This document shows, one piece after another, positions 1 through 59,154 of a stretch of 64,000 bases of DNA. The position numbers and the translations under genes are program-made. The stretch's first letter is position 1. The number at the start of each line of letters is the position of its first letter. This stretch comes from an uncultured Flavobacteriales bacterium. Lineage in GTDB: Bacteria; Bacteroidota; Bacteroidia; Flavobacteriales; BACL11. Under the pieces are notes generated by a model. That model worked only from the letters and a program-made list of their open reading frames with translations. It was not told where the DNA came from and did not search any database. The stretch spans positions 2,319 to 66,318 of the forward strand of contig CAXFOB010000016.1 in the NCBI GenBank assembly GCA_964004625.1. Direction: 5' to 3'.

Positions 1-1
1 A

Positions 2-3000
2 GATTATAACTCTGCTCCATCTCTATTAGATTATTCATTGTCTCCAATATGTAATACAACAGACCCTAACTATCCAAATTACAACTATACAATTAACTTA
101 ACTGTTACAGATATTGAAGGTTGTACTAACAACTTACCTCTGAGTATTGATATTGTATGTGAACCTATTGCAGATTTTATACATAATGATATTTGTATTG
201 GAGAACCTGATAATGCAACCTATCAGTTTATAGATAATTCTAATGTTACTCCAAATTCATATTATTGGGATTTTGGCGACCCAGCATCCGGAACAAATAA
301 TAATTCAACAGATCCTTCTCCAACTCATACATTCACAGGAACAGGACTATATTTTGTAGAATTGACAATAATATCCGGATCTTCTTTACAGCCATGCTCA
401 GATAATGAAGGATATTGGATAAATGTTTATGAAAATCCCAACAGCACATCTTTATCTACAAACGTAAGTTGTTTCGGAGATAATGATGGATCTATTGATG
501 TAACTGCAACTGGAGGAACTCCTAGTTATGAATACTCCATTAATGGTGGAACTAATTGGCAATCCTCTAATATATTCTCCAACCTAGCTGCTGGAACATA
601 TACTATAGATATTGAAGATGATAATGATTGTACAGATGATCTGACAATAACAATAACAGAACCTACACAACTAAATAATACATCTTCTTTTACTGAACCT
701 AGTTGTTTCGGAGATACAGACGGAGAGATTACGATAACAACAACTGGAGCAACTCCTAATTATCAATACTCCATTAATGGTGGAACTAATTGGCAATCCT
801 CTAATGTGTTCTCCAACTTATCCGCCGGAACATATACTATAGATATTGAAGATGATAATGACTGCCCGGATCTAATAAATGTTACTGTAACAGAACCTAC
901 ACAACTAAATAATACATCTTCTTTTACTGAACCTAGTTGTTTCGGAGATACAGATGGAGAGATTACGATAACAACAACTGGAGCAACTCCTAATTATCAA
1001 TACTCCATTAATAGTGGAACTAATTGGCAATCCTCTAATGTATTCTCTAACTTATCCGCCGGAACATACACTATCGATATTGAAGATGATAATAACTGCC
1101 CGGATCTAATAAATGTTACTGTAACAGAACCAACTATACTAACTGTAAGTATCGCTAACACAATAAATGTAAGTTGCTTTGGAATGAGTGATGGTGAAGT
1201 TACAATAAACGCAAGTGGAGCAACTCCTAATTATCAATACTCCATTAATGGTGGAACTAGTTGGCAATCCTCTAATATATTCTCTAACTTATCCGCTGGA
1301 ACATACATTATTGATGTAAAAGATGTATTCGATTGTACCGATAACATAACGGTTACTATAACAGAACCTGATATCTTGTCAAGTATTTTCTCATTAACAT
1401 CAATGGATTTGTGTTATTCAGATATAATAAATATAAATGGACAATATATATATTCAAATAATAGTACGGGACCAATTATAGATTTTACATGGACAATATC
1501 TACTACCCCGCCATGGTCATATACAACAAGTAATAGTATACCAACAAACTTTCCTCAACTAGATCAAGATATCAGTCCTATTGATTATGACATAACATTA
1601 AGTGTTAATGGTGGTATATGCGGTACAGAAACACATACAGAAACAATAACAATAAATCCTGAACCACAAGTGAATTTTAACACATTACCATCACAAACTC
1701 AAAATCCAACATGTCTTATAACTCAATTTGTAGATAATCCAATTGAAATACTACTAAATTCATACATAATACCATATAATATATCAGACAATAGTGGTAA
1801 TACGGCTTATATAGAAATATACGCTCCAAATGCATTAGACGCAACTACAGGACTGCCATTACACCCTGTTGGGTCTACTTTTATAATGAATCCTGTTACA
1901 TCTTCAAGTCTTAACTTTCTTGTCTGGCCAGATTTATTCATTGAATATGACGCAGTTGGAACATATCAAATCTGTATTACTGGACATAATACATGGTGTC
2001 CTCCAACTCAGGTTTGTTGTGATGTACAAATAAATACTAATGGAATTCAAGCTAATTTCAATACAATTACTAGAGAGGGATGCGAGGGAGATGATTTTTA
2101 TTTTCAAGATTTATCTTACCCACCAGTTCCTGGAAATATGATTCAATGGTGTTGGAATTGGCAAGGCACTTCATGTGCCCCGGGAGCTCTAACTAGTCTT
2201 ATTCCACAGGACGGTGGGATACATACTCAGAGTGCTACTTCAATTTATTATAACAATCCAGGAATATTTTTTGTTAATCAATATGCAGAAAATTTACTAT
2301 ACAATGATAATTATAGTGACCCTATTCCTGTAATAGTACATCCAAAACCACAACCTAATTTTGATATTCCTATAAATCCTGTGTGTAAAAATACAAGTGC
2401 TTATTTTACCAACACTTCATCTATTACTCCTCTTCCAATAACACCGCCAGAGCAAATCACATCACACAACTGGTATGTTCAAGATTTAGGAGGTATTTAT
2501 AATTTTGGAGCTATAACAAATGTAAATCAATGGATTTCACCTGGAACAAATGATTTAGATTTTACTTTTCCAAATTCAGGAAATTGGAAAATCATCTTAG
2601 AATGTGAATCGGATAATATCACATGTAATTGTATTAATCAATATGAAGAAACTATATTTGTACATGAGTTACCTATCGCTAATTTCATATCAATTCATAA
2701 TCCAAGTTGTGTGGATGACAATTTAGTATTTAATGGAAATACAGGAATAGCAGGTGGTTCAAATAATAGCTCTACAGGTGTTATTGATGAATGGAATTGG
2801 GATTTTAATGATAGTTATTGTCCAACATTACCAACTTGTAGTTTATATAACAGTACTACCAATGGAGACGCTGATCATAATTATACAGTAAATTCATCTT
2901 ATAATGTTACACTAACTGTTAGCGATAATAATGGATGTATTTCCCTCCCAACAACAAATCAGATATTTGTTGACCCATTACCAACAGCATCATTTACTGC

Positions 3001-6000
3001 AACTACCGAATGTTTAAACACACAAACACAATTAGACGGAACCTCTAGTTCAAATTCAACAGATACTTGGGTTTGGGAAATATTTGATCCACAAGAAATT
3101 GGTGGTTCTACTATTCAAACAACAAGTAATCCATATTATAACTACACATTCTCAACACCTGGATATCATAATGTAATATTAACTACATATTCAACTTTAT
3201 CTAATGGACAGATATGTGTTTCAACACCTTTTACACAACAAGTTTATGTTAATGATTTACCTAATCCTAGTTTCTCTTTTAATATTGCTTGTGAAGATAA
3301 TTTTTTAGGTATAAATGAAACAACTAATTTTATAGATCAAACACCTTCATCAACTATAAATTCTATATCAGGCTTGACAGATGCACTTATTACATTATAT
3401 GATTACGTGTGGTATTTTAATGGATCTCCAATTAATTCTCCTCCAGGAAATACTTCATATACATTTGGAGCACCTAATTTCTCACCTGGACATACTGTAA
3501 GTTTACTAGTAACAGATGATAATGGATGTACAAATACTTTTACAGACAATGTACCTGTTTCTAATTTACCAAATCCAGATATATCCTTTACCTCTTCAAT
3601 AACAGGACTAGAAGCATGTGAAGGTGATATAGTACAAGTATCGGACAACTCTATTTATTCAGACTTTGTATCAAATAGTGTAAATTGGTCAATAAGTCCT
3701 GCAGCTTCTATAACAACTTCTTCATCAAACCCAGCAACAATTAATTTATCAAATGTAGGAACACATACTATAACTTTGGATGTAACTGATATAAATAATT
3801 GTCCATCAACAACCTCAATTATTATTGATGTTTGGGATAATCCTACAGCAGTAATAAATCCTATAACAACTGTATGTGAGGACTTAGTAAATTTAATAAC
3901 AGCTACAAACCTTACACATTCTTCTTTACCAGGAAGTGGTGCTATAACTAAATATTATTGGGATTTTGGAGATTTTACAAATGAAATTATTCTATCACCA
4001 TTTAATGGAAACACTACACATTTTTATAATTGTGGAAATTATGATGTAAATCTGACAGTGACAGACGATAATGGTTGTACAAATTCTTCTACAACTGAAA
4101 TTGCGACAGTTAACTGTAATCCTACAGCTAATTTTGATGTTCTACCAATTTGTTTAGATCCATCATCAACAAATCCTAGCACCTTTACAAGTACATCTAT
4201 ACCAATTTCCGGAACAAATATTACAAGTTTTAATTATGAGTTTAATGATCCTAATTTAGGACCTCAAAACATTTATTCAAACCCAGCAACTTGGGCATTT
4301 AGTACCCCAGGAAATTTTCCTGTTATATTAACAATTATTGATGATCAAAACCCTGGTTGTTCTGATGAAATCACAAAATATGCATTAGTTCATGAACTTC
4401 CAACAATTTCTTTTACAGCGCCTGAAGTTTGTGAAGAAGAAATAACAATATTAACGGCGTCATCTAATCATCCAATTATCAATTATTCATGGAATATAGA
4501 TCTAACGACTGGAGATTATGTATCTAATTATAATGATACAGATAACCCAACTCAGTTTGAGTTTAATAATGCCTCTGCTAGTCATATAGTTTCTGTTACT
4601 GTAGTTGATGATAATAATTGTGTAAACTCAACAATACCATCACCTGTTGAAGTTTGGGCTAATCCTCAAGCAAATATTGATATAGATCCTAATCAATCAT
4701 TTTGTTTATATGAAGATATTCAAATAACTGATAATAGCATTTTGGGATCAGGTACAATCAACTATTGGGATTGGGATTTTGGATTAAATTCTAACCCAAC
4801 GATATTATGTTGTAATACTGACAATGCTTTAGTTAACTACAGTTCACAGGGATGGAAAACAATTTCTTTATATGTTGTGGATGATAATAGTTGTAATAGT
4901 ACAATTGTAGAGGACATATATATTAATCAATTACCAAATGCTTATTTTACTACTAACACACCATTGTGTTATGGATTTATTGTTGAATTTAATAACAAAT
5001 CAACTTTAGGTGAACCTTCCAACTATTTTACCGCTTTTGATTGGGAGTTTTATAATTCTGACGGTACAATAAATGGGACATCTCAGCAAATACCTAGCAA
5101 TCCACCATTATCTAACGAACTTATTCAAGGTCATGATTATTCACAAAATATAATTTCGACTATAGGGGCTTATGTAAGTGCGCAACTTATTGTTACAGAT
5201 ATTGAAGGCTGTACTGGTACTTATAATTCTTCATTAAATAATCCTCAGCAGGACATACAAATTCATCCATTACCTATTGTTGATTTTGATTTTGAAAACA
5301 TATGTGAAGATGAGGATTTTATTTTTATTGATAATTCCACAATGGATAACAATTCTGTTTTTCCTACACACCAATTAACAACTATAAATACTGACCCATT
5401 AAACAACCCTATTTTTGACTATAATGGACTTTTTAATTCAAATACAGGTAATATGAATGGAGGAAGTTGGATTCCTCCATTATGGACCCTCCCTGCTAAT
5501 AATTTAATTGCTAATTCTCCAAATGGAGTACCTGTAAAATTAACGAGAGAAACTGACGTTGGATGTGTAGGAACTAAGGTAAAATACCCTGTCATTAAAC
5601 TAAGTCCAAATATTGATTTTACTGTTTCTTATAATCCAATTAACAGATGTGGTGAAGATGTTAAATTTAGTTTTTATAATAATTATTTTGATTTAACCTC
5701 TAATTATGATTATAAATATAGCATACAAAATTTTCAAGGAGTTCAGATTAGTGAACCACAAGATATTAATATTATTAATTATAATTTTAATTTACCGGGA
5801 GTTTATTACTTAAACATTGAATTAGACAATAATAATGATTGTATAGTTGATTCAATTTACAATATCTATATTAATCCAAATCCTATATCTAATTTTACAC
5901 CAAGTATTACAGAAGAATGTGAGGACATTTTAATTGATTTTACAGATTTATCTACTATTCCAAATAATAATGTAAACGGCATTAGTACAAATATTATTAG

Positions 6001-6805
6001 ATGGGACTGGGATCTTGATACAGTTCAACAAATAATTAATTCTCCAGAAGATGGAAATACATTTTTTACTTTTAATAATATTTCTTCTCCATATGATATC
6101 TATTTAACTGTTACAACAGATTCATCCTGTACAGATATTTTTGGACCAAACTCAATTATTGTTCATCCAACACCCATTGCAGATTTTGTAACTCCACTTA
6201 TTGGAGAGAATGGGAAATATTTATTTGATGGTACCATAACTACAACATCAAATGGATTACCTGCTTCTCCACCTCAATATAATTATAGCTGGGAAATTGA
6301 AGATGGGAGTTATATTATAAATGTTTCTCCTGATGATGATATTCAACTTGATGGAACAGAAGATTATGGATACTATTGGTATAATAGTTTGATTAATGAT
6401 GCTTGGCTAGAGGTCTGTTTATTTGTTGAAAATGATTATCGTTGTATAGGGGACACCTGTAAAGATGTAAAGGTAGATCACTTTAACAATTTAATTGTAC
6501 CCAATTTCTTATATCCTTCTGACCCAAGTTCTGGATCAAGTGTCTTTCTACCAAAAGGTAAATCATTAGAAACATATAGATTACAAATATTTGACAAATT
6601 TGGAAATCTGCTTTGGGAAACTACTGCATTAGACGAAAATGGTTCTCCAACAGTAGGATGGAAAGGAACATCTCTAAATGGTATTGTACCTCAGGGAACA
6701 TATGTATGGAGAATTGAAGCTGCTTATGATGATGGAGAACCTTGGTTGGGGATATTAGATAACGGAAAGAGAAAAAAATCTGGATTCATAACACTAGTGA
6801 GATAA
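2..6805 (+). CDS. Large PKD/SprB-repeat surface protein with divergent T9SS type-B (gliding motility-associated) C-terminal domain; probably 5'-truncated by the window edge
   Basis: The frame is open from nt 2, so the TTG at 38 is unlikely to be the true start. Many PKD motifs (YYWDFGD, WNWDFND), four SprB-like repeats (SCFG..DG.I....GGTP.Y.YSI), and a C-terminus LIVPN...L.IFDKFG...GWKG...QGTYVW...SGFITLVR. Confidence 0.88.
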   Translation, partial: DYNSAPSLLDYSLSPICNTTDPNYPNYNYTINLTVTDIEGCTNNLPLSIDIVCEPIADFIHNDICIGEPDNATYQFIDNSNVTPNSYYWDFGDPASGTNNNSTDPSPTHTFTGTGLYFVELTIISGSSLQPCSDNEGYWINVYENPNSTSLSTNVSCFGDNDGSIDVTATGGTPSYEYSINGGTNWQSSNIFSNLAAGTYTIDIEDDNDCTDDLTITITEPTQLNNTSSFTEPSCFGDTDGEITITTTGATPNYQYSINGGTNWQSSNVFSNLSAGTYTIDIEDDNDCPDLINVTVTEPTQLNNTSSFTEPSCFGDTDGEITITTTGATPNYQYSINSGTNWQSSNVFSNLSAGTYTIDIEDDNNCPDLINVTVTEPTILTVSIANTINVSCFGMSDGEVTINASGATPNYQYSINGGTSWQSSNIFSNLSAGTYIIDVKDVFDCTDNITVTITEPDILSSIFSLTSMDLCYSDIININGQYIYSNNSTGPIIDFTWTISTTPPWSYTTSNSIPTNFPQLDQDISPIDYDITLSVNGGICGTETHTETITINPEPQVNFNTLPSQTQNPTCLITQFVDNPIEILLNSYIIPYNISDNSGNTAYIEIYAPNALDATTGLPLHPVGSTFIMNPVTSSSLNFLVWPDLFIEYDAVGTYQICITGHNTWCPPTQVCCDVQINTNGIQANFNTITREGCEGDDFYFQDLSYPPVPGNMIQWCWNWQGTSCAPGALTSLIPQDGGIHTQSATSIYYNNPGIFFVNQYAENLLYNDNYSDPIPVIVHPKPQPNFDIPINPVCKNTSAYFTNTSSITPLPITPPEQITSHNWYVQDLGGIYNFGAITNVNQWISPGTNDLDFTFPNSGNWKIILECESDNITCNCINQYEETIFVHELPIANFISIHNPSCVDDNLVFNGNTGIAGGSNNSSTGVIDEWNWDFNDSYCPTLPTCSLYNSTTNGDADHNYTVNSSYNVTLTVSDNNGCISLPTTNQIFVDPLPTASFTATTECLNTQTQLDGTSSSNSTDTWVWEIFDPQEIGGSTIQTTSNPYYNYTFSTPGYHNVILTTYSTLSNGQICVSTPFTQQVYVNDLPNPSFSFNIACEDNFLGINETTNFIDQTPSSTINSISGLTDALITLYDYVWYFNGSPINSPPGNTSYTFGAPNFSPGHTVSLLVTDDNGCTNTFTDNVPVSNLPNPDISFTSSITGLEACEGDIVQVSDNSIYSDFVSNSVNWSISPAASITTSSSNPATINLSNVGTHTITLDVTDINNCPSTTSIIIDVWDNPTAVINPITTVCEDLVNLITATNLTHSSLPGSGAITKYYWDFGDFTNEIILSPFNGNTTHFYNCGNYDVNLTVTDDNGCTNSSTTEIATVNCNPTANFDVLPICLDPSSTNPSTFTSTSIPISGTNITSFNYEFNDPNLGPQNIYSNPATWAFSTPGNFPVILTIIDDQNPGCSDEITKYALVHELPTISFTAPEVCEEEITILTASSNHPIINYSWNIDLTTGDYVSNYNDTDNPTQFEFNNASASHIVSVTVVDDNNCVNSTIPSPVEVWANPQANIDIDPNQSFCLYEDIQITDNSILGSGTINYWDWDFGLNSNPTILCCNTDNALVNYSSQGWKTISLYVVDDNSCNSTIVEDIYINQLPNAYFTTNTPLCYGFIVEFNNKSTLGEPSNYFTAFDWEFYNSDGTINGTSQQIPSNPPLSNELIQGHDYSQNIISTIGAYVSAQLIVTDIEGCTGTYNSSLNNPQQDIQIHPLPIVDFDFENICEDEDFIFIDNSTMDNNSVFPTHQLTTINTDPLNNPIFDYNGLFNSNTGNMNGGSWIPPLWTLPANNLIANSPNGVPVKLTRETDVGCVGTKVKYPVIKLSPNIDFTVSYNPINRCGEDVKFSFYNNYFDLTSNYDYKYSIQNFQGVQISEPQDINIINYNFNLPGVYYLNIELDNNNDCIVDSIYNIYINPNPISNFTPSITEECEDILIDFTDLSTIPNNNVNGISTNIIRWDWDLDTVQQIINSPEDGNTFFTFNNISSPYDIYLTVTTDSSCTDIFGPNSIIVHPTPIADFVTPLIGENGKYLFDGTITTTSNGLPASPPQYNYSWEIEDGSYIINVSPDDDIQLDGTEDYGYYWYNSLINDAWLEVCLFVENDYRCIGDTCKDVKVDHFNNLIVPNFLYPSDPSSGSSVFLPKGKSLETYRLQIFDKFGNLLWETTALDENGSPTVGWKGTSLNGIVPQGTYVWRIEAAYDDGEPWLGILDNGKRKKSGFITLVR
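463..1370 (+). repeat. Four tandem 234-bp (78-aa) SprB-like repeats inside the large adhesin gene
   Basis: ACAGAACC recurs at 656, 890 and 1124 (period 234). Units 656-889 and 890-1123 are nearly identical at DNA level. Confidence 0.9.
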
Positions 6806-9719: not shown

Positions 9720-12700
9720 CTTTTAATTGTTACGGTACCATTAAACACTTTCCCAGAATCTTTTAACTCAATTACATAATAGTATGTTGCGATTGGTAAA
9801 TCAACGCCATTTCTTTTTCCATCCCATGGGACAGAATAGCCCTCAGAGAAAAACACCTTTTGTCCCCATCTATTATGAACATGAACGACAACATCAGGGA
9901 AATTATACAAACCATATATAGCCCATTCATCATGAATACCATCATTATTTGGAGTAAATCCTGATGGAATTTCTATACAACCATCATAGCCGTCAAAACC
10001 AACTTCAATTGTTTCTGTTAGATATACACATGAGTTTGCGTCTCTAACTTCTAAAGTATAAAACCCTTTTGATAAATTATTTAACTCAGAACTATAATCT
10101 CCATTTGACCATAAATAAGCATAAGGCATTGTCCCTCCCGACACATTTGCTGAAATAGAACCGTCATTATTTTCTTCACAACTAGCATCGAATGCTAAAC
10201 AGTTAATTATTACTTCCTCAGGTTGAAAAATTTCAACTGAGAATGTTGCTGAACAATTATTTACATCCTGCACTAACACAGAATATAATCCAGCTTCTAA
10301 ATTTTCAATAGTTGAAGAAGAGGCTCCATTACTCCAAGAATAAAAATATGGAGGAGTATTTCCACTTAGGATAAAATCAATAGAGGCAGTTGATTCTCCA
10401 TAACATTTTACATCTAAAGTATTAAACACATCTAAGTATGCTAAGGGCTCAGAAATAGTATAGTTTTCTGAAATAACACAATTATTTGCATCTATAACAT
10501 CAACTGTATAAATTCCTGCTAAAATATTATTTAAATCTTCTGAAGTTTCTGAATTAGACCAATTATATGATAGTCCTCCGGTTCCACCAGAAACATTAAT
10601 ATCAATACTGCCTAACGCTGCTCCATTACAAACAGAATTTTGAATTGTTGATCCAATTACTAACTCTGTAGGTTCTGTAATGCTCGCAGTATCATAAATA
10701 ATACAACCATTAGCATCAGTTAACTGAACAGTATAAGTTCCAGCAGATAAATTATTTAAATCTTCAGTTGTTTCATTATTACTCCACAAGAAGGAATATC
10801 CAGAAACACCACCAAAAGGAGCAAAATCAATAGAACCATTATTGTTACCATAACAATCTATATTTGTATTAGATATAGAGGATATTAATTCAGGTGCATC
10901 TTGTACATTAAATTGTAAAGTTTCCTCACAATTATATACATCAGAAACTACAACTGTATATTGACCTGCAGAAGCCAAAATAATTGTGTTTGTATTTGTA
11001 GAAAACCCATTACTACAATCATAAGTATAAGGTGGTATACCACCTGTAGTGCTCAAAATATTTATTTCTCCTGTAGAATCTCCATGGCATTTTGTAAAAA
11101 CAGGTGAAACATAAGATGAAATTATCTCGGAATTTTCAGATATATCAACAGTATTTGTTGTATCACATCCATTATCATCTATTATAGTTACTGTATAGTT
11201 TCCAGCTAATAATCCACTAATATCCTCTGTTATTTCTGAGTTGCTCCACTGGAAATTATATGGAGGTGTCCCACCAGAAAGACTTAAGTCGGCTTCACCT
11301 GTAGCATCTCCAAAACATAATATACTTGTTCCAAGTATATTAGATGTCAAGGGAAATTGAGGTTCTGTTATTATAAAATTATTTGAAATCTGACATTGAT
11401 TTAAATCTGTAATGACTACAGAATAGTTACCAGAAGGTATGTTGTATAAATCTTGACTTACTTCTAAATTACTCCATAAATAGGAATAAGGCGATATTCC
11501 ACCGGTAATTTCTAAGTCAATAATTCCTGTATAATATCCTTTGCAAAGAATATTTGTTACTGAATCATTTAAAACTAACTCGTCTGGCTGATAAACATAA
11601 GTTGTATCTGAATAAAGACAACCATTTGAATCTGAAACATAATAAACATAATCAGATGCAATTAAAGAGTCTATATATGTAGAGTCAGATAAAACAGCAT
11701 CCCATGAAATTGAATATGGAATTGTACCACCTTGGATATTTACATTAATGACTCCATCAGAAAACGAATTACAACTTACATCTTGTACACTAGATGTAGC
11801 AAATAAGGAATCTGGTTCCTGAATTGTAAAAATTGTATCTTTAGAACATGAATAATCATCTTCTATATGTAAAGTATATGTTCCATTATGTAAGTTTGCA
11901 ATATCTTCATTATTAGAATTAAAACCATTAGGCCCATTCCAAAGAGTTATTAATGTTCCTGTTCCTCCATTTAGATTAACTGATACTGATCCATTTCCAT
12001 CATTATAACAAGTATTATTTAATACAAGGAATGAATCAAGTGTTATAGGGATTGGTTCTGAAACAATAAACTCAAAAGTATCTCTACAAAGTCTTGAATC
12101 AATTAACTCAAGAGTAAAAGTATCTGCACAAAGATCTGAAATCAAATTTGATGTATTTATACCATTACTCCAATTATAAAGAAAGGGAGCGCTTTCTGGA
12201 TTTAAAATATTTACTTCAATTTGACCACTACAAGAATTAAAACAGCTGTCATTTACAATAGTTGTTTGTAACACAAAAGAATCTCTCTCATATAAGATAA
12301 TAGATTCTGTTTCTGAACAATTGTTAGCGTCTATAAAAGTTATTGAATATAAATCTGGACATAATCCTGTTAGCATTGTCGTGTTAGTATCAATGATAGA
12401 GGCATTTAACTGCCAAATTATATTATAAGGAGTTGAACCTCCACTTATGGAAACCTCAATTGCTCCATCACAAACCTGATAGCATGCACTGTCAGTGATA
12501 ACTGAACTTAATTTAAGTGTGTCTGGATTTTCAATAAATACTGTATTAGTAGTAAAACATCCATTGGAATCAGTGATTATCACATTATGTGTTCCATAAC
12601 ATAAGTTAAAAGCAGTATCTGATGTTTGTCCGTCACCCCAAAGAAATGTAAAGGGATATATTCCGTCTTCAGGTATAACAATAGCAGATGCGTCACATGA

Positions 12701-52460: not shown

Positions 52461-53087
52461 ATGAAAACTTTAGTAAAAACTTTAACACTTTTAACATTCC
52501 TTAGTAATTGTACAACTGAAGGGAAGGAAACTCAAAACACCAGAATAAACATAAAAGAGGAAGTGGTTTTTACTCCTGAAAACTTTGCAGACAGTCTTAG
52601 TGTGGCTTCTATCAAACTCACTGAAACAAGGGTTGTTTACACTCCCAATTATGTAGGAATAGATTATCCTATGGGAGATGTACCAGTAAATACTGGTGTT
52701 TGTACAGATGTAATTATAAGAGCATATAGGGCCATGGGAATTGACCTACAGAAAGAACTTCATGAAGATATAAAAAACTTTCCTAATAGATATCCAAACA
52801 TTGATAGAGCAGATCATAATATTGATCATAGAAGAGTTCCTAATCTTTCCAAATTTTTTACAGAATATGGAGAAGTTTTAGATGTATCTAATAACACAAA
52901 CAACTACAAAGCGGGAGATATTATATATTGGAAATTAGGTGGAACCACAGACCATATTGGAATTGTAACCCACCTTAAAAATAAAAACGGGACACCTCTT
53001 ATAGTTCATAATATTTGCTGTGGACAAAATCTAGAAGACTGTCTTTTTGACTACCCTATCTACAAACATTTTAGGTTTAGAAAGTGA
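52461..53087 (+). CDS. DUF1287 (YijF-like) lipoprotein
   Basis: Lipobox LSNC; YPMGDVP...GVCTDVIIRAYR, NIDHRRVPNL, GDII.W, HIGIV. Confidence 0.85.
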   Translation: MKTLVKTLTLLTFLSNCTTEGKETQNTRINIKEEVVFTPENFADSLSVASIKLTETRVVYTPNYVGIDYPMGDVPVNTGVCTDVIIRAYRAMGIDLQKELHEDIKNFPNRYPNIDRADHNIDHRRVPNLSKFFTEYGEVLDVSNNTNNYKAGDIIYWKLGGTTDHIGIVTHLKNKNGTPLIVHNICCGQNLEDCLFDYPIYKHFRFRK

Positions 53088-54365
53088 TTATTTTATTAGC
53101 ATAACATCACCTATTTTCTTGCGTGTTTCTCCTAATTCATCCTCAATAATAATAGCCCACGCATACTTTCCAGCAATGGCATTCTCACCACTCCATCCAT
53201 CTCCTACGTCATTAGTTTTAAATACTTCTTCTCCCCATCTATCATAAACCACAAAAGTATAAGATTTGTATTTTGCCATTCGTAAACCTTTCGGTATAAA
53301 TACTTCATTCTTTCCGTCTTTGTTTGGAGAAAAACTATTTGGAACATACAATAAGAAATCATAATAAACCGTAATGGAATGAGAAATAGAATCCATACAA
53401 TTATTAGTATCTAATACAGTTAGCATTACCTCATAAATTCCTGGATTTGAAAACACATGTATTGGGTTTTCTATAGTAGTATCTCTACCATCTCCAAAAT
53501 CCCATAATAACGGAATTGCGTCTACAGATTTATTTGTAAATGTAATTTCCGGATTAAGAGTAGATGCAGAATACGGATAATATTCAAACTCTGCTTTGGG
53601 TAGATGATAAATTTGTAAATTCTTGCTAATTGAATCCTCACATCCTGCATCCGATTGTACTATTAAAGTAACATTATATAAATCTACCTCAGAATACAGA
53701 TGAGAAACAGTAGGTCCTGCATTATAACTTCCGTCGCCTAAGTTCCAAATCCAACTTACTATATTGCCTGTAGAAATAGTAGAAGCGTCTATTAAATTAC
53801 TTTCACTCTTAAAACAGATTCCATCAATCCAAAAGTCTGGATTAGGTTTGGGATTAAAATATACATCTATATTATTAGATATATTTTTGCATCCATTCGT
53901 ATCAGATACTAACACAAAATAGTTTCCGCTAGTAAATACATCTATACTATCTGTATTAAGTCCATTACTCCATATTAAAGATGTATACATTGAGTCGGAG
54001 ATTAAGGTCATAGAATCTCCTTCACATAATGTGGTATTACCAAGAGAATAAACAAACGGGGTTGGTTTCGGATATACTTCCACTAAAATACTATCTTTTC
54101 CTGTACATAAATTAGCATCAGTTTCTAGAACATGGAGCCAAAACACACCTGGAGTGTTAAGGTCAATTAAGATGTGCTCTGTTCCATTTCCAGAAGTGAT
54201 AGTTGCAATACTTTGTGTGCCAATAGTCCAATTATAAGTGGACCCAGTTGAAAAAGGAACAGCAAAATGTTGCGCAGTATCTCCTTCACAAAGGCGAATA
54301 ATATTTTGTGCCGATAAGGAAGTCTGCAACAAGAAGAAAAATAATATGTATTGTAGTTTTTTCAA
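53088..54365 (-). CDS. PKD-domain protein with T9SS type-B C-terminal domain
   Basis: Signal peptide, PKD-like N domain, WNLGDG/WDFGDG PKD domains, VPNSFSPNKDG.N..F...YDRWG...GWSG...G.Y...G.V.LIK. Confidence 0.9.
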   Translation of the reverse strand: MKKLQYILFFFLLQTSLSAQNIIRLCEGDTAQHFAVPFSTGSTYNWTIGTQSIATITSGNGTEHILIDLNTPGVFWLHVLETDANLCTGKDSILVEVYPKPTPFVYSLGNTTLCEGDSMTLISDSMYTSLIWSNGLNTDSIDVFTSGNYFVLVSDTNGCKNISNNIDVYFNPKPNPDFWIDGICFKSESNLIDASTISTGNIVSWIWNLGDGSYNAGPTVSHLYSEVDLYNVTLIVQSDAGCEDSISKNLQIYHLPKAEFEYYPYSASTLNPEITFTNKSVDAIPLLWDFGDGRDTTIENPIHVFSNPGIYEVMLTVLDTNNCMDSISHSITVYYDFLLYVPNSFSPNKDGKNEVFIPKGLRMAKYKSYTFVVYDRWGEEVFKTNDVGDGWSGENAIAGKYAWAIIIEDELGETRKKIGDVMLIK

Positions 54366-54374
54366 TTCTTTATA

Positions 54375-55949
54375 TTACCAATGGTTAATAGGTCCTGTAG
54401 TTGGTAGTGCATAAATTTCTAGAATTACTGTTGTAGGAGGACTCTGACATCCATTCTGGCTTTCTGTTACATAATAAGTATATATACCCACCGCAGTTTG
54501 TCCTGTAGCAAAAGGAGAATTTGTACCAACCATATTTGTAAGAGCCGCGTCATTATACCAACTAAATGAAGTACCAACACCTGTTGCTGTTAAATCCGGT
54601 ACAGCAGAACCAAAACAGGTATTTACATTAGATGCGATAGGTAAAGAATTAAATGCATTAATTGTTAAAGTTACAGGAGTTGCAATACTCTCACAACCAT
54701 TTACATTCGTCTCTGTTACATAATAAGTATATACCCCCGCTGTGGTTTGTCCTGTTGTAAAGTAAGTGCCTGTACCAACCACATTCGTTAGAGATGCATT
54801 AGAATACCATATAGAATTAGTTCCACTAGAAACTAAGTCAGGAATAATGCCACCGACACAGGCTGTCTCATTATTAGCAATAGGCGCAGTTGGTAAAGCG
54901 TATATTTCTAAAGTAGCTACAGAAGTAATACTTTCACATCCATTTAGATCTGTTGTAGTCGCATAATAAGTATATATTCCTACGGAATTTTGTCCTGTAG
55001 AAAGGGTATTGCCTGTCCCTACTTGTGCGGTAAGTGTAGAATCCGAATACCAGGTAATATTAGTTCCAGTAGATGTTAAATCTGGAATTATACTTCCAAA
55101 ACATGCTGTTTGATTAGAAACAGAAGGAGATGATGGTAAAGAGTATATTTCTAAAGTGGCAGAAGTTGCTGCACTCTCACAACCATTTACATCTGTAGTT
55201 GTTGCATAATAAGTATATATTCCCGCTGCAGTTTGTCCTGTTGCAAAGTTGGATCCTGTTCCTACTTGAGAAGTAAGTGTAGGATTAGAATACCAGGTAA
55301 TATTAGTACCAGTAGCTGTTAAATCTGGAACAGAAGATGAAAAACAAGTAGTTTGGTTTGTAGCAACTGGCGCTGGAGGAACCGCATATATCTCTAAAGT
55401 AACAGGAACTGAAGGTCCTTCACATCCATTTAATGTTTCAGTTACATAGTAAGTATACAATCCTACTACATTTTGTCCTGTAGCAAAATTATTTCCAGTT
55501 CCTACTTGTGTAGTTAGATTAACATCCGAATACCAAATAACATTACTCCCGATTGCGGTTAAATCCGGGATTGTACTTCCAAGACAAGCTGTTTGACTGG
55601 TACCAATAGTTGCTGTAGGTAATGGATTAACAGTTACATCTACTGTAATTGGAAGACCAATGCAACCATCTGCATCTGTTTCAATTACAGAAACAATATA
55701 TACACCTGGAGTAACCCCCCAATTTATTGTTATATTATCAGTAGTCGATCCATTAATAATAGTTCCTCCTCCAGTTAGACTCCATTGATAAGTAGATCCT
55801 GGAGTTGGAGGATTGATTAAATACGGTTCAACAGAACCTGCACATACCGTTTGAAACGGGGATGTGTTTGTTTGAGCAAACATCACGCTAGATGTAAGTA
55901 AGAATATTCCTAAGAATATTCGATGTAATAATTTGTTTTTTGTTTTCAT
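54375..55949 (-). CDS. Secreted Ig-like repeat protein without T9SS CTD (ends PTTGPINHW)
   Basis: Signal peptide (MFA|Q), PKD-like N domain, five ~82-aa repeats C.G..PDL...G....WY....L...VGT...TGQ...G.YTYY.....GC. Confidence 0.85.
   Translation of the reverse strand: MKTKNKLLHRIFLGIFLLTSSVMFAQTNTSPFQTVCAGSVEPYLINPPTPGSTYQWSLTGGGTIINGSTTDNITINWGVTPGVYIVSVIETDADGCIGLPITVDVTVNPLPTATIGTSQTACLGSTIPDLTAIGSNVIWYSDVNLTTQVGTGNNFATGQNVVGLYTYYVTETLNGCEGPSVPVTLEIYAVPPAPVATNQTTCFSSSVPDLTATGTNITWYSNPTLTSQVGTGSNFATGQTAAGIYTYYATTTDVNGCESAATSATLEIYSLPSSPSVSNQTACFGSIIPDLTSTGTNITWYSDSTLTAQVGTGNTLSTGQNSVGIYTYYATTTDLNGCESITSVATLEIYALPTAPIANNETACVGGIIPDLVSSGTNSIWYSNASLTNVVGTGTYFTTGQTTAGVYTYYVTETNVNGCESIATPVTLTINAFNSLPIASNVNTCFGSAVPDLTATGVGTSFSWYNDAALTNMVGTNSPFATGQTAVGIYTYYVTESQNGCQSPPTTVILEIYALPTTGPINHW
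54400..55610 (-). repeat. Five ~82-aa Ig-like tandem repeats
   Basis: PDLT/WYS/TGQ/YTYY/NGCE motifs recur five times; boundaries approximate. Confidence 0.85.
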
Positions 55950-55980
55950 GACCTTAACATTTAATTGATTAATATTTATT

Positions 55981-57846
55981 TTAATTATGATTTATTGGTT
56001 GTGTGGCTACAATAGAAATAGGCACCAAAACTACTGGAGACCATGGTCCTGCGTTACAGCCATTATCTTCTTTTACTTTGACTCTAAACTGAGTAGTAGA
56101 AGATATGTTATTATATATTTGTGGATTTGATGTTGACATACCAGGGCTTGTCATATTTATCCACCCTCCTCCATTATTAAACTGAAATCTATACCTATTT
56201 ACTGGAAGAGAAGTAGAAGCTGTAAGTATAATACTCTCACCTAAACATGCAGGATTAGGAATAGTTGAGAGAGTAGCTGTTGGAAGAGGATTTACTGTTA
56301 TTGTTACTACATCTGTTGCAACACAACCACCTGAATTAAATGTGCATGTATAGGTTGTTGAAGATGTAATCCCAGAACTAAAAATTGGATTTGGAACATT
56401 AGGGTCAACAAAATCAGATGCTGGACTCCAAGAATAGTTTCCGATAGATGAAGAAGTTGCACTTAATGAATTTGGAACAGCTCCACTACAAATTGTCTGA
56501 CTACCACTTGTAGTAACAGAAACATTAGAAGGTCCTCCAACAATTGCAGTTTCTGTAGCAGTACAGCCGTTAGCATCAGTAATTGTCATTGTATATGTTC
56601 CTGCTGATAGATTTGTTGCAGTCTGTGTAGTTTGTCCATCAGACCATAAATAAGTAACTGGTGTTGCTACCGAACCGGTAACAACAATAGTGTAATCTTC
56701 TGTTTCACCAAAGTAGGCACTTTGGTAATCACACGCTAATGATTGATTAGTATTTTGATGCTGATAGTTTTGAGCAACAATTCTCATTCTACTTTGTCCA
56801 GGTATTGCCGCAAATGGAACGGTAATTGGAATAGTATGAGTTGAAGGACTTTGAGTAGGATTTACTTGTCCAACTAACTCGTTGATATCATTAAAATCTC
56901 CATCAATATTCCAATCAATATATATATTAGCTCTATCTTCCAAATATTGAGCAGACCCATTCATACCAGCAAAATTACATGTACCTAAATCTAGAGTCAG
57001 ATTATAAGTATTTCCAGGAGTAACATCTGCAGACATGGAAGTAAAATCAAAATATTCTGTATTAGGACAAGTAGTATTATTATTTATCACATTAACATCT
57101 CCAATAAAATTTACATTAGTTATGGTAGAATATTGGTGAGAATTATATAAAGAATTAGGGCCAGAAAGACAATAATTATTTAATGCAGAAGCACCAACAC
57201 CAGTAATATTTACGGTAGCATATCCACTTTGAGTACAAGTCGCATCTATAACTGTAGTAGATAAATTAATTGGTGCAAATTGACTTATTCCAAAACTCTC
57301 TATTCCACAAGATTGTCCATCTGCAAAAACTTCATAAGTATGAGAACCTCCACACATATTTGTAAAAGTTTGATTAGCTGTTACGGATGATAATCCATCT
57401 ACAGAATAAGTGTAATTTGTAGGAACAATACCTCCTGTTAAATTTAAACTTAAAGATACATTACACTCGTTCGGACACGCTTGAGTTGGAGAAGATTGAA
57501 TATTGGAACTCGGCATCCTTATCTCAAAAGTATCTGAATACATTACACTTGGACATGAACTATAATAAGGAGAAGACGCGGTAATCACATAAAAACCCGC
57601 TTCTAAATCAACTCTCGAAGTGTTTGCTAGTGGTCCTCCAGTATTGAAAAAAACACCAGTTTGAACATTTTGCCAGGAATAATTTAGATAAGTAGCCTGT
57701 ATAATTTGTGCTGCCCCAACCGCTCCGCCATTCGGACAAATAATATGACTAATATTTGCAGTGTCAACAACTATACTACACTGAGAATGTAAGTTATTGG
57801 TACTTAAAATGAAAAGTATTAATAATATTTCTAAGTAATATTTCAC
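55981..57846 (-). CDS. Secreted GEVED + SprB-repeat protein without T9SS CTD (ends ATQPINHN)
   Basis: Signal peptide; YIDWN.DGDF.D..E...RMRI...GETEDY (GEVED); YLWSDGQTTQTATNLSAGTYT.TITDANGC (SprB). Confidence 0.85.
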   Translation of the reverse strand: MKYYLEILLILFILSTNNLHSQCSIVVDTANISHIICPNGGAVGAAQIIQATYLNYSWQNVQTGVFFNTGGPLANTSRVDLEAGFYVITASSPYYSSCPSVMYSDTFEIRMPSSNIQSSPTQACPNECNVSLSLNLTGGIVPTNYTYSVDGLSSVTANQTFTNMCGGSHTYEVFADGQSCGIESFGISQFAPINLSTTVIDATCTQSGYATVNITGVGASALNNYCLSGPNSLYNSHQYSTITNVNFIGDVNVINNNTTCPNTEYFDFTSMSADVTPGNTYNLTLDLGTCNFAGMNGSAQYLEDRANIYIDWNIDGDFNDINELVGQVNPTQSPSTHTIPITVPFAAIPGQSRMRIVAQNYQHQNTNQSLACDYQSAYFGETEDYTIVVTGSVATPVTYLWSDGQTTQTATNLSAGTYTMTITDANGCTATETAIVGGPSNVSVTTSGSQTICSGAVPNSLSATSSSIGNYSWSPASDFVDPNVPNPIFSSGITSSTTYTCTFNSGGCVATDVVTITVNPLPTATLSTIPNPACLGESIILTASTSLPVNRYRFQFNNGGGWINMTSPGMSTSNPQIYNNISSTTQFRVKVKEDNGCNAGPWSPVVLVPISIVATQPINHN

Positions 57847-57868: not shown

Positions 57869-57876
57869 CAAAGATA
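57869..57876 (-). promoter_or_regulatory. -7 element TATCTTTG for the three-gene surface-protein operon
   Basis: TAnnTTTG match 22 nt before the GTG at 57846. Confidence 0.6.
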
Positions 57877-57885
57877 TAAAATATA

Positions 57886-59154
57886 CTACTCTATAGGAGA
57901 TAAATGATAATCCTTATAAATACACATCCTTACATCAGTATTTATATAACCTCCATTGTTTGAAAACTTTATAAATGAAAATTGTCTTTTATCAGAACAA
58001 AAATGCATGATCGACCTAAAAGATAATAATGAGTAATCATCCATTTGATGAGAAAAATTTGATTCAAACTGATGTAACAACCTCCTATTTTTAGTAGAAT
58101 GTCTATCAAAATAATTAGAAACAGGAATATGAACATTTAATTTCATTAATGTCTCTGTATTTAATTCTAAAACGTCCTTTAATGGTTCTTGCGCATATAT
58201 AGTAATTAAAGAATCAGAGGCTCCGCAAAATGTAACCACCTTTTTTATAAATGGTTTATTTTCAGATAAGATTAAAACAACATTCTCTTGATCACTTAAA
58301 AAACCAAAAGAACTTTTATTTACTGAAGATAAATTTCTAAATTCTTTATGGACAATCCCTGGAAAAGTAGTAAATAATCTATTCTTAAGTACAAAATATT
58401 CTGATTTTTTACTTTCCTGTTCGTTAGAAACAATGATTAATTTTTTCTTTGTCTCATTCTTAATAATACACCTTACTAAAGAATCTTTATGTTGTTTTAT
58501 AAAAGGTGTTAAAAAATAAACATTTTTAGATTCTTGTAAAAGAGTATAATTTCTTGACAATGGATTTATAATTACTTTATTATAATCTTTTCTGAAAAAA
58601 TTTCTAACTAAATTAAAATTCTTTAAATAGATAGGTCCAAAAATAATATTTGATGACTTTACTCTGATATCAGTGATAATTTTTTTAAGAGTATCTAAAT
58701 TATTTTCGGTATCAAAAACATGGATAACAACTGGAATCCCTAACTTTTCTAATGTATCTACAGACAATAATATTCCTTCGAGAAAACTAATTGCTAAGTT
58801 TGATTTATTATATATCTGATGAGTATCCTTCTGATTTTCTCTTAAATATTTCAATAATGTAGTGTTTTTATCAATATAAAAAGGAAGTAATACTGAAATA
58901 GTTATAGTATCTTTTATAATGGTAAATACAGAATCAGAACTATGTATAACATCTGAATTATGTAGATTTTTTTGTTGAATCTTAGGAATAATTAATTTAG
59001 GTTCTCTCTTATTTTTTTTTATTTCTTCATTATCAAGAGTCTTTGCTTTTCCACTAGGAGAGTGATATCCAAATTTAATCTTTTCTTGAGCAAAAGTAAT
59101 ATTCATTAAAAAAACGAATATAAAACATAATATATTACTTTTACTAAATCTCAT
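57886..59154 (-). CDS. Periplasmic-binding-protein-type (PBP1-like) exported protein
   Basis: Signal peptide; VLLPF, F.EG.LL..D.L...G.....VFDT, IIFGPIY, NPLS; sits downstream of guaA like the LysM-PBP1 proteins of Bacteroidota. Confidence 0.65.
   Translation of the reverse strand: MRFSKSNILCFIFVFLMNITFAQEKIKFGYHSPSGKAKTLDNEEIKKNKREPKLIIPKIQQKNLHNSDVIHSSDSVFTIIKDTITISVLLPFYIDKNTTLLKYLRENQKDTHQIYNKSNLAISFLEGILLSVDTLEKLGIPVVIHVFDTENNLDTLKKIITDIRVKSSNIIFGPIYLKNFNLVRNFFRKDYNKVIINPLSRNYTLLQESKNVYFLTPFIKQHKDSLVRCIIKNETKKKLIIVSNEQESKKSEYFVLKNRLFTTFPGIVHKEFRNLSSVNKSSFGFLSDQENVVLILSENKPFIKKVVTFCGASDSLITIYAQEPLKDVLELNTETLMKLNVHIPVSNYFDRHSTKNRRLLHQFESNFSHQMDDYSLLSFRSIMHFCSDKRQFSFIKFSNNGGYINTDVRMCIYKDYHLSPIE

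Follow-up and report, generated by a model that had tools for sequence, protein, structure and literature searches.

A three-gene operon of an uncultured Flavobacteriales bacterium (GTDB lineage Bacteria; Bacteroidota; Bacteroidia; Flavobacteriales; BACL11) was analysed within a stretch of 64,000 nucleotides (nt), hereafter the window, which covers positions 2,319 to 66,318 of contig CAXFOB010000016.1 in assembly GCA_964004625.1. The source genome is that of a small-genome flavobacterium (1.64 Mb; assembly 99.8% complete, in 42 contigs), and the stretch is found in marine metagenome runs. The three genes, here called A, B and C, encode secreted proteins that may be separately made parts of a single surface adhesin. 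In the arrangement put forward below, a short C-terminal donor tail on one protein would complete an acceptor domain at the N-terminus of the next (the N domain), an immunoglobulin (Ig)-like domain of the PKD_6 type from which exactly one strand is missing. The features of the operon are collected in Table 1.

Table 1. Features of the A-B-C operon, with positions counted from the first letter of the window (aa, amino acids; CTD, C-terminal domain; T9SS, type IX secretion system).
Feature	Positions	Strand	Description
Gene A	55981..57846	-	621 aa, GTG start; putative tip subunit: signal peptide and donor tail, without acceptor domain and without CTD
Gene B	54375..55949	-	524 aa; putative connector: signal peptide, acceptor N domain, five Ig_7 repeats, donor tail
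Gene C	53088..54365	-	425 aa, TTG start; putative anchor: signal peptide, acceptor N domain, PKD domains, type-B CTD, without tail
A/B intergenic gap	55950..55980	-	31 nt
B/C intergenic gap	54366..54374	-	9 nt; frame kept, single TAA
GEVED domain of A	56686..56928	-	residues 307-387; Pfam PF20009, 59.9 bits (gathering cut-off 24.4)
Donor tail of A	55984..56004	-	last 7 residues, T-Q-P-I-N-H-N; A-type junction, x-P-I plus three residues
Acceptor N domain of B	55614..55871	-	residues 27-112; PKD_6-like, first strand missing
Five Ig_7 repeats of B (putative shaft)	54408..55613	-	Pfam PF19081, 143.2 bits, 5 stretches
Donor tail of B	54378..54407	-	last 10 residues, with the end G-P-I-N-H-W; B-type junction, G-P-I plus three residues
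Acceptor N domain of C	54066..54305	-	residues 21-100; sub-threshold PKD_6, match to the profile of B-type N domains
Middle of C, Ig-like stretch and two PKD domains	53346..54065	-	boundaries approximate; PKD_4 96 bits, PKD 66.7 bits, 2 stretches each
Type-B T9SS CTD of C	53091..53345	-	residues 341-425; CHU_C match
TAnnTTTG promoter-like motif, TATCTTTG	57869..57876	-	22 nt upstream of the start of A

A first-pass annotation, made from the letters and their open reading frames (ORFs), had described three co-oriented genes with these lengths and gaps, and ORF analysis bore this out. It had also assigned PINH tails to A and B, a shared N domain to B and C, and a type-B CTD to C only; the sequences and family scans agree with this anatomy. 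In C, CHU_C matched residues 341-414 at 49.8 bits (cut-off 27), so that C is probably a type-B cargo of the T9SS, as judged from its sequence. In A and B, no CTD of type A (Por_Secre_tail) or type B (CHU_C) was matched at E ≤ 0.01 in Pfam and NCBIfam. A signal-peptide-like stretch was recognized by eye, without a predictor, at the start of each of the three proteins, and no lipobox was seen by eye in A or B. As to the label 'GEVED/SprB' given to A, the GEVED half stands with a score well over the gathering cut-off (Table 1), and the SprB half was not reproduced, as no SprB family was matched at E ≤ 0.01 in Pfam. The single TAnnTTTG motif that had been placed ahead of the operon is likewise present. 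However, the motif occurs 128 times in the window (103 ± 9 expected), five further copies lying on the minus strand inside the operon, and because it is frequent in this AT-rich window it carries little weight as promoter evidence. Scans for sigma-70 promoters and for terminators returned nothing above shuffled sequences.

The last residues of A are Q-P-I-N-H-N, and those of B are G-P-I-N-H-W. Only two of the 4,049 stop-to-stop frames of at least 60 aa in the genome end in P-[IVL]-N-H followed by 0-3 residues, namely A and B. The distribution of the operon was followed through protein C in 301 genomes sampled from the order. At a threshold of E ≤ 1e-40, C orthologues were present in 45 of them, belonging to the families here labelled f1 (26 of 42 genomes, plus the genome of the window), f2 (2 of 2) and f9 (16 of 21), and in none of the other 15 families of the order; the operon thus recurs in three families of small-genome marine Flavobacteriales. 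Complete triplets numbered 33, i.e. 32 of the 38 fetched loci plus the window. The loci left out of the counts were L014 (B broken by masked letters), L031 (B in short frames), L008, L022 and L038 (cut by contig ends) and L049 (A and B fused, see below); two further complete operons, in G149 and G156, were found later. A related-locus search with protein C returned one locus.

All 33 triplets, drawn from the three families, consist of a tail-only A, a domain-plus-tail B and a domain-plus-CTD C. The bodies of the proteins vary (A 200-1046 aa, B 190-639 aa, C 353-447 aa), and the last domain of B is of at least five kinds. The tail Ile is found in 66 of 66 tails and is followed by exactly three residues in 63 of them, including all 33 A tails. 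The His of the tail is constant in f1 and replaced by Thr, Phe, Tyr and other residues in most of f9; because it varies outside f1, the constant core of the tail is a Pro-rich linker, the Ile and a fixed distance to the terminal carboxylate. The median gap between A and B is 31 nt, and that between B and C is 5 nt (range -4 to 38), a tight spacing that fits coupled synthesis.

Tails and acceptor domains keep company in wider searches as well. Among 107 database relatives of the N domain of B, 99 end in G-P-I-x-H-W/N; the other 8 either stop inside a domain without a tail (two are labelled 'partial') or have a different architecture. In 46 genomes of family f1, a DNA pattern for P-I-x-H-N-stop was matched 32 times and its reversed control 14 times; 23 of the 32 are operon tails, and the remaining 9 lie in frames of 2-24 codons. 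Tail proteins occurring independently of the N domain, which the first-pass annotation had regarded as incompatible with its proposal, were thus not found outside the operon with this pattern in these genomes.

The nature of the N domain is indicated by its family matches. In B, residues 33-83 were matched by PKD_6 (PF19408) with 30.1 bits against a cut-off of 25; in C, residues 24-72 were matched with 21.8 bits, under the cut-off, and a profile built from B-type N domains matches C residues 21-101 with an E value of 1.3e-16. The PKD_6 match begins at profile position 12 of 82 in B and at position 13 of 82 in C, whereas in unsplit copies of PKD_6, taken from other families of the order, it begins at position 2. 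In these unsplit domains the order is a linker, G-x-I-x-G, three or four residues, and a conserved Cys at position 15. When the B-type N-domain profile was compared with 1.84 billion representative proteins, 14,873 proteins were matched at E ≤ 0.001, the best 150 of which are giants with 7-52 tandem copies each. The giants gave 2,487 domains, and the 2,294 that could be anchored on the Cys yielded, for the residues leading up to it, the consensus V-x-V-N-P-L-P-x-P-x-I (69%)-T/S-G (81%)-x-x-x-V-C. From the sequences, this segment would run from the closing strand of one domain through a Pro-rich linker into a short first strand around the Ile, and on through a turn to the strand that bears the Cys.

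The operon tails share this layout as far as one residue beyond the Gly position, where they end, and the mature end of the next protein starts a few residues ahead of the Cys. Ten columns of the repeat set were turned into a scoring matrix, with which 1,718 frames of the genome that holds the window were ranked by their C-termini; on this scale, 28 of 32 A tails and 28 of 33 B tails fell in the top 5%, and 15 and 19, respectively, in the top 1%. When the register was slid, the largest excess over the null was obtained with the tail ending 4 residues before the Cys (+16.6 bits for A, +16.8 bits for B), and the best fit is therefore in the predicted register. Each cut falls exactly between the first and the second strand of a domain, and the tail is best read as the first β-strand of a PKD_6 domain whose remainder opens the next protein. 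If the tail is the domain's own first strand, it follows that the N domain is a split domain.

A natural fusion is found in genome G098, where the same slot holds two genes, one for a 1,340-aa protein with a B-type tail (L049 1664-5686, minus strand) and then C. The C-terminal ends of the A orthologues of four related genomes align to residues 856-859 of this protein, and the first mature residues of the B orthologues align from residue 865. In the fused protein, Ile856 and three residues are followed by five linker residues and a B-type domain with its Cys at 868, and the PKD_6 match of this domain, which is weak (19.4 bits), starts from profile position 4. Tail and acceptor here form one continuous chain, as the split model predicts, without stop codon, gap or signal peptide.

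It should be noted that the fused protein of G098 carries an N-terminal proprotein-convertase P-domain (51.4 bits) where the A of the window has other modules plus GEVED; the tip modules vary from genome to genome. Unsplit relatives of the acceptor domain were encountered in other proteins too. The window's own genome encodes a 684-aa protein (locus L058, C39:36825-38879, minus strand) with such a domain near its C-terminus, preceded by a P-P-I-T-G first strand and followed by about 60 residues that by eye resemble a type-A CTD. In several loci of family f9 (L037, L039-L041, L045 and L048), an extra large CTD protein of 758-1107 aa is encoded directly upstream of A; the three that were scanned (L037, L045 and L048) each contain one strong unsplit copy of the domain and weaker matches. 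A 729-aa frame in G188 was considered as a B-C fusion and rejected, since it is a different CTD protein with no acceptor-domain match.

The acceptor domains were modelled with AlphaFold2. That of C was predicted with confidence, at a predicted local distance difference test (pLDDT) of 89.3, as a seven-strand sandwich (strands at residues 5-9, 15-18, 26-31, 37-41, 47-52, 56-65 and 71-81 of the modelled piece), and that of B, with a pLDDT of 87.7, is likewise a confident sandwich of seven strands. In the B model, residues 1-5 have a pLDDT under 50 and no strand lies ahead of residue 9; with its N-terminal extension unstructured, the acceptor site is free. The fold is PKD-like, the best solved match being the PKD domain of AAVR (TM 0.72, 16% identity), and a sequence search returned no solved relative (best E 0.34).

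Complex modelling, which the first-pass annotation had proposed as a check, was carried out for the B-to-C pair, combining the N domain of C (31-row alignment) with the last 95 residues of B, in three runs and with three controls. The interaction prediction score from aligned errors (ipSAE) was 0.79 in each of the three runs, and the best control reached 0.01; in a calibration that is rough only, since the alignments were self-made, 58 of 80 solved complexes and 2 of 110 mismatched pairs attained the mark. At least 94% of the contacts agree between the runs, and the pLDDT of the partner is at least 89. Residues 84-95 of the B piece face positions 15-20, 60-66 and 68-76 of the C domain, the tail Ile contacting positions 17-19, 60, 62, 74 and 76. 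These contacts of the Ile imply that the tail runs along the second strand and points the Ile into the core, in the place of the first strand. The interface includes the most conserved positions of both acceptor types, i.e. the aromatic residue at 17, Leu/Ile at 60, Glu at 64 and Cys at 70. The model supports binding of the B tail to the C domain: a subunit with an incomplete Ig-like fold is, computationally, completed by a neighbour's terminal strand. The docking of each tail on the next N domain in the order A, B, C, as first proposed from the letters of the window, is backed by four independent lines, namely the conservation of the parts, the position of the break, the G098 fusion and the complex model, and we consider it quite probable that the pieces dock as described.

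The tails themselves are of two types. A Gly two residues before the Ile is found in 32 of 33 B tails and in 1 of 33 A tails, and this holds in both large families. Genome G032 has four genes, A, B1, B2 and C. Its A and B1 tails, which stand ahead of B-type acceptors, both have P-P-I, and its B2 tail, which stands ahead of C, has G-P-I; the type of a tail therefore tracks the acceptor that follows rather than the protein to which the tail belongs. Between the B-type and C-type acceptors, for their part, there are consistent differences at interface positions 6, 15, 16, 63 and 73-75. We read two tail types matched to two acceptor types as two specific junctions that would give a defined A-B-C chain rather than a polymer of B. 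The pairing of x-P-I with B-type and of G-P-I with C-type acceptors points, at the level of sequence, to an ordered chain. As a separate observation, the A gene of G032 (L029, about 5190-5300, minus strand) has an in-frame stop 26 codons before the tail, at a codon for Trp in the G019 orthologue; this may be an error of the metagenome-assembled genome, a pseudogene or a variant.

The first-pass annotation had allowed for polymerization of B, so that the fibre would be A-(B)n-C with the B tail also fitting B's own N domain. B does carry both an acceptor and a donor, and the core pocket residues listed above are common to B- and C-type acceptors. In G032, moreover, B1 combines a B-type acceptor with the tail type that precedes B-type acceptors; it is the only protein whose halves would match each other, and its self-association is possible in principle. 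On the other hand, G-P-I tails always stand before C-type acceptors and x-P-I tails always before B-type ones, in two families, several interface positions are type-specific, and the genes with tails number from 1 to 3, as expected if gene content sets the length. The tail type of B and its dependence on the next acceptor thus give no support to polymerization, and a shaft polymer seems unlikely to us.

From the computed anatomy, conservation and break position, together with the fused relative and the confident model of the B tail in the C domain, we infer actual binding, docking of the A tail on the B domain, assembly in the periplasm, co-export, surface location and an adhesin role, and the following sequence of events can be proposed. 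A, B and C would be made separately and exported separately by Sec as pieces of one linear surface adhesin. Each junction would be a PKD_6-type Ig-like domain cut in two at gene level, the upstream tail (Pro-rich linker, invariant Ile and three residues) representing its first β-strand and the remainder following directly on the downstream protein's signal peptide. Once in the periplasm, the tail would pair in trans with the second strand, which is exposed, and its Ile would fill the hydrophobic core; the rebuilt, complete domain would join the chains head to tail, the two junction types setting the order A-B-C. The joined chain would then be, topologically, one long T9SS cargo with two nicks and with its sole CTD at the C-terminal end. 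Type-B cargoes stay bound to PorP/SprF-like proteins, and the type-B CTD of C would both take the chain through the T9SS and hold it on such an outer-membrane protein, leaving B as the shaft and A, with its GEVED domain, as the outermost binding tip.

The genome is equipped for this export route. SprA (2646.6 bits) and PorV (472.1 bits) were identified, GldM was matched over the cut-off together with its neighbours, and genome-wide there are 20 matches to CHU_C over its cut-off and 7 to PorP/SprF. That A and B are carried via the T9SS and anchored through the CTD of C is conjectural. The pieces might instead dock with A and B not carried by the T9SS, the complex being periplasmic or A-B reaching C by some other way. 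In favour of this, the open-access literature searched holds no case of co-export by the T9SS. Against it stand the CTD of C, which scores over the Pfam cut-off, and the presence of SprA, GldM and PorV; A and B, in addition, are built of adhesin-type Ig, GEVED or P-domain modules, as are the unsplit T9SS giants, and the G098 fusion plus C amounts to the same modules in fewer chains. One review (PMC9251779) also describes the T9SS as moving folded proteins that carry a CTD. We hold a periplasmic location or another route to be as unlikely as the B polymer.

In the same part of the genome, two observations concern T9SS cargoes other than C. The window begins inside the gene of a 2,962-aa CHU_C protein with weak PKD_6 matches (window positions 1-6805; C16:235-9123, plus strand), and PorP/SprF-like matches were found at C16:9171-9296 and 11165-11983, beside a 1,192-aa CHU_C protein. 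By its gene order this is a classical linked arrangement of cargo and shuttle, unlike that of the orphan C.

A further alternative is that the tail does not dock as a strand but serves, on its own, as a C-terminal signal for sorting or processing, recognized by a protease, by a protein of the PDZ type or by some component of the T9SS. A short motif at the extreme C-terminus, with a strict distance from Ile to carboxylate, is typical of C-terminal recognition signals. Such a signal, however, leaves unexplained why the strand absent from the acceptors is the very one that the tail resembles, why G098 has tail and domain in one unbroken stretch, why tails are found solely before acceptor-domain genes, and why the complex model comes out as it does, and it appears improbable, more so than either of the alternatives discussed above.

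That the operon is one gene broken by an assembly error or by pseudogenization, an idea to which the in-frame B/C junction with its single TAA and the existence of unsplit relatives lend some colour, is very improbable indeed, given the signal-peptide-like start of each piece, the maintenance of the split in 33 operons of three families with differing gap lengths and frames, and a DNA run from an independent study (X2) whose contigs cross both junctions with 0 differences and no indels, which excludes assembly error just as the first-pass annotation had expected. Read-through of the stop at the in-frame B/C junction was also considered and rejected, since with gaps of -4 to 38 nt the frame is not kept among the operons and each C has a signal peptide.

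Several points weigh against the reading of A, B and C as one chain that is joined through split domains and carried by the T9SS. The tails bear only a modest likeness to the canonical first strand, those of the window ranking 24th (A) and 78th (B) of the 1,718 frames, and His takes the place of the Gly seen in unsplit repeats. With a gapless matrix based on 9 distinct first-strand segments of canonical PKD_6 domains, the tails were not ranked, and a hidden Markov model of those few canonical domains gave scattered, non-significant alignments with 30-residue tails; both failures are attributed to too few and nearly identical models and to a differing linker length, and for this reason the set of 2,294 repeats was used in their place. 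The complex score is the model's own confidence, and the evidence is computational throughout. The complex model covers the B-to-C junction, that of A to B resting on the homology of the pocket, the G098 fusion and the conservation of the tail. Mutual information between tail and acceptor positions placed 6 and 7 of the top 30 pairs at the interface, where 9 were expected, a comparison that is uninformative at the depth and relatedness of 33 related operons. As regards export, the score of C with TIGR04131, the NCBIfam model of the type-B sorting domain, is 33.7 bits and thus 1.3 under the cut-off of 35, and no PorP/SprF-like gene lies in or next to the operon, the nearest on the contig being about 44 kb away. 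A PorP/SprF-like gene adjoining the gene of a type-B cargo is frequent and not obligatory. Orphan type-B cargoes can share an unlinked PorP/SprF-like shuttle, according to one report (PMC12618676). No report of T9SS export of a non-covalent complex was found in open-access papers and preprints. Contigs from RNA libraries of three studies (X14, X15 and X16) match pieces of A, B and C at ≥ 99%, but none crosses a junction and DNA carry-over is possible; they are a hint of expression, and no claim of co-transcription is made.

With these points taken into account, the whole model, including carriage by the T9SS, is in our judgement more probable than the alternatives taken together, and less probable than the docking itself. 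The broader proposition would be that the T9SS exports a non-covalent fibre whose CTD-less subunits ride on a CTD-bearing anchor by means of split PKD_6 domains, and that the orthogonal tag/catcher junctions fix the order and permit the swapping of cassettes; it is offered tentatively, at somewhat less than an even chance.

The operon lies between lolA and a gene for a 422-aa protein, the latter preceding guaA, and its flanks hold ftsK and lolA-like genes, a DUF1287 gene, the 422-aa gene and guaA. The slot between lolA and the 422-aa gene varies among relatives (L070-L074): it is empty in G034, G021 and G011, and in G014 and G007 it is filled by an unrelated gene pair encoding proteins of 787-797 aa and 317-324 aa. 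The larger of these resembles, by eye only, a TonB-dependent receptor at its two ends. Because the slot is variable, A-B-C can be regarded as a self-contained accessory cassette.

The 422-aa secreted protein (window positions 57886-59154, minus strand) was matched by no family of Pfam or NCBIfam, and close to its C-terminus an aromatic-x-D/N-Y/F stretch is conserved. Its gene is kept at this place wherever the upstream side of a locus was assembled, with or without the operon, and it was rejected as a fourth member, as it occupies the same place beside empty or otherwise filled slots. On the other side, the DUF1287 gene (203 bits, with a weak CHAP match; window positions 52461-53087, plus strand) is convergent with C at a distance of 0 nt, ending one base before the stop of C, and is found beside the operon in only some genomes, e.g. 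G005. The three genes have been labelled by gene callers as 'hypothetical' or 'PKD domain-containing'. In public calls (P0258-P0288), C orthologues are often 413-414 aa long in place of 425-426 aa, with a start 11-12 codons late; for the C of the window, a start of this kind, 12 codons into the frame, would cut away the first 12 residues of the signal peptide.

The proposed assembly can be compared with several known systems. In chaperone-usher pili (type 1 and P pili), subunits are joined by donor-strand complementation and exchange. As would be the case here, an Ig-like subunit one strand short receives that strand from a short terminal extension of its neighbour, and the tip has one half of the junction, the middle subunits both and the terminator the other. 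Their donor is N-terminal, however, and replaces the last strand, whereas the donor of the operon is the extreme C-terminus and would represent the first strand of PKD_6; they also need a periplasmic chaperone and an usher, whereas export would here use the T9SS. None of the three operon genes was matched by chaperone or usher families in Pfam, and the operon is not a member of this group.

Type V pilins are made as lipoprotein precursors; a protease takes off an N-terminal strand and so opens the groove, and their shaft polymerizes. Type V pili (FimA and Mfa1 of Bacteroidia) belong to the same phylum, have separate tip, shaft and anchor subunits, and use C-terminal strands to fill the groove of the next subunit. 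Unlike them, the operon would have a groove that is open once the signal peptide is gone, a type-B CTD as anchor and junctions that seem to be pair-specific. Neither A nor B nor C was matched by the FimA/Mfa family in Pfam, so that the operon is not of type V; by analogy, it would work like both pilus systems while belonging to neither, and its fold is not theirs.

The nearest relatives by descent are, as far as can be judged from sequence, the unsplit tandem-repeat giants. These T9SS-type adhesins share the domain family and the P-x-P-x-I-T/S-G layout of linker and first strand, but they are single polypeptides, whereas the operon has two cuts, at each of which a stop codon is followed by a short gap and by a further signal peptide. 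For the export of passengers, a parallel is provided by the 'hitchhiker' co-export of twin-arginine translocation (Tat), which has been shown experimentally, e.g. with PaoABC (PMC4273604). There, signal-less subunits travel with a signal-bearing partner as a folded complex, as A and B would with C, but across the cytoplasmic membrane by Tat and not across the outer membrane by the T9SS. As for engineered systems, SpyTag/SpyCatcher is a split of the Ig-like CnaB2 domain that is locked by an isopeptide bond. It has in common with the operon that a one-strand peptide rebuilds an Ig-like domain in trans, and differs in that the junctions of the operon would be natural, presumably non-covalent and of two apparently orthogonal types. 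No description of the present split-domain arrangement was found in open-access papers and preprints. The principle, strand complementation, is a known one.

If the model is correct, this would be the third independent invention of fibre assembly by strand complementation, after chaperone-usher and type V pili, and one whose origin is visible, since unsplit tandem repeats, a fused relative and split forms coexist. The two short natural pairs of peptide and domain, being apparently orthogonal, could also serve as tools for protein assembly. The free variation of A and B suggests that tip and shaft are exchanged as cassettes on a constant anchor. To the best of our knowledge, T9SS cargo recognition has been thought to require a CTD on each exported protein. 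With two of three subunits devoid of a CTD, the operon would add the co-export of complexes to the repertoire of the T9SS, and would account for some of the CTD-less 'adhesin-like' genes of Bacteroidota.

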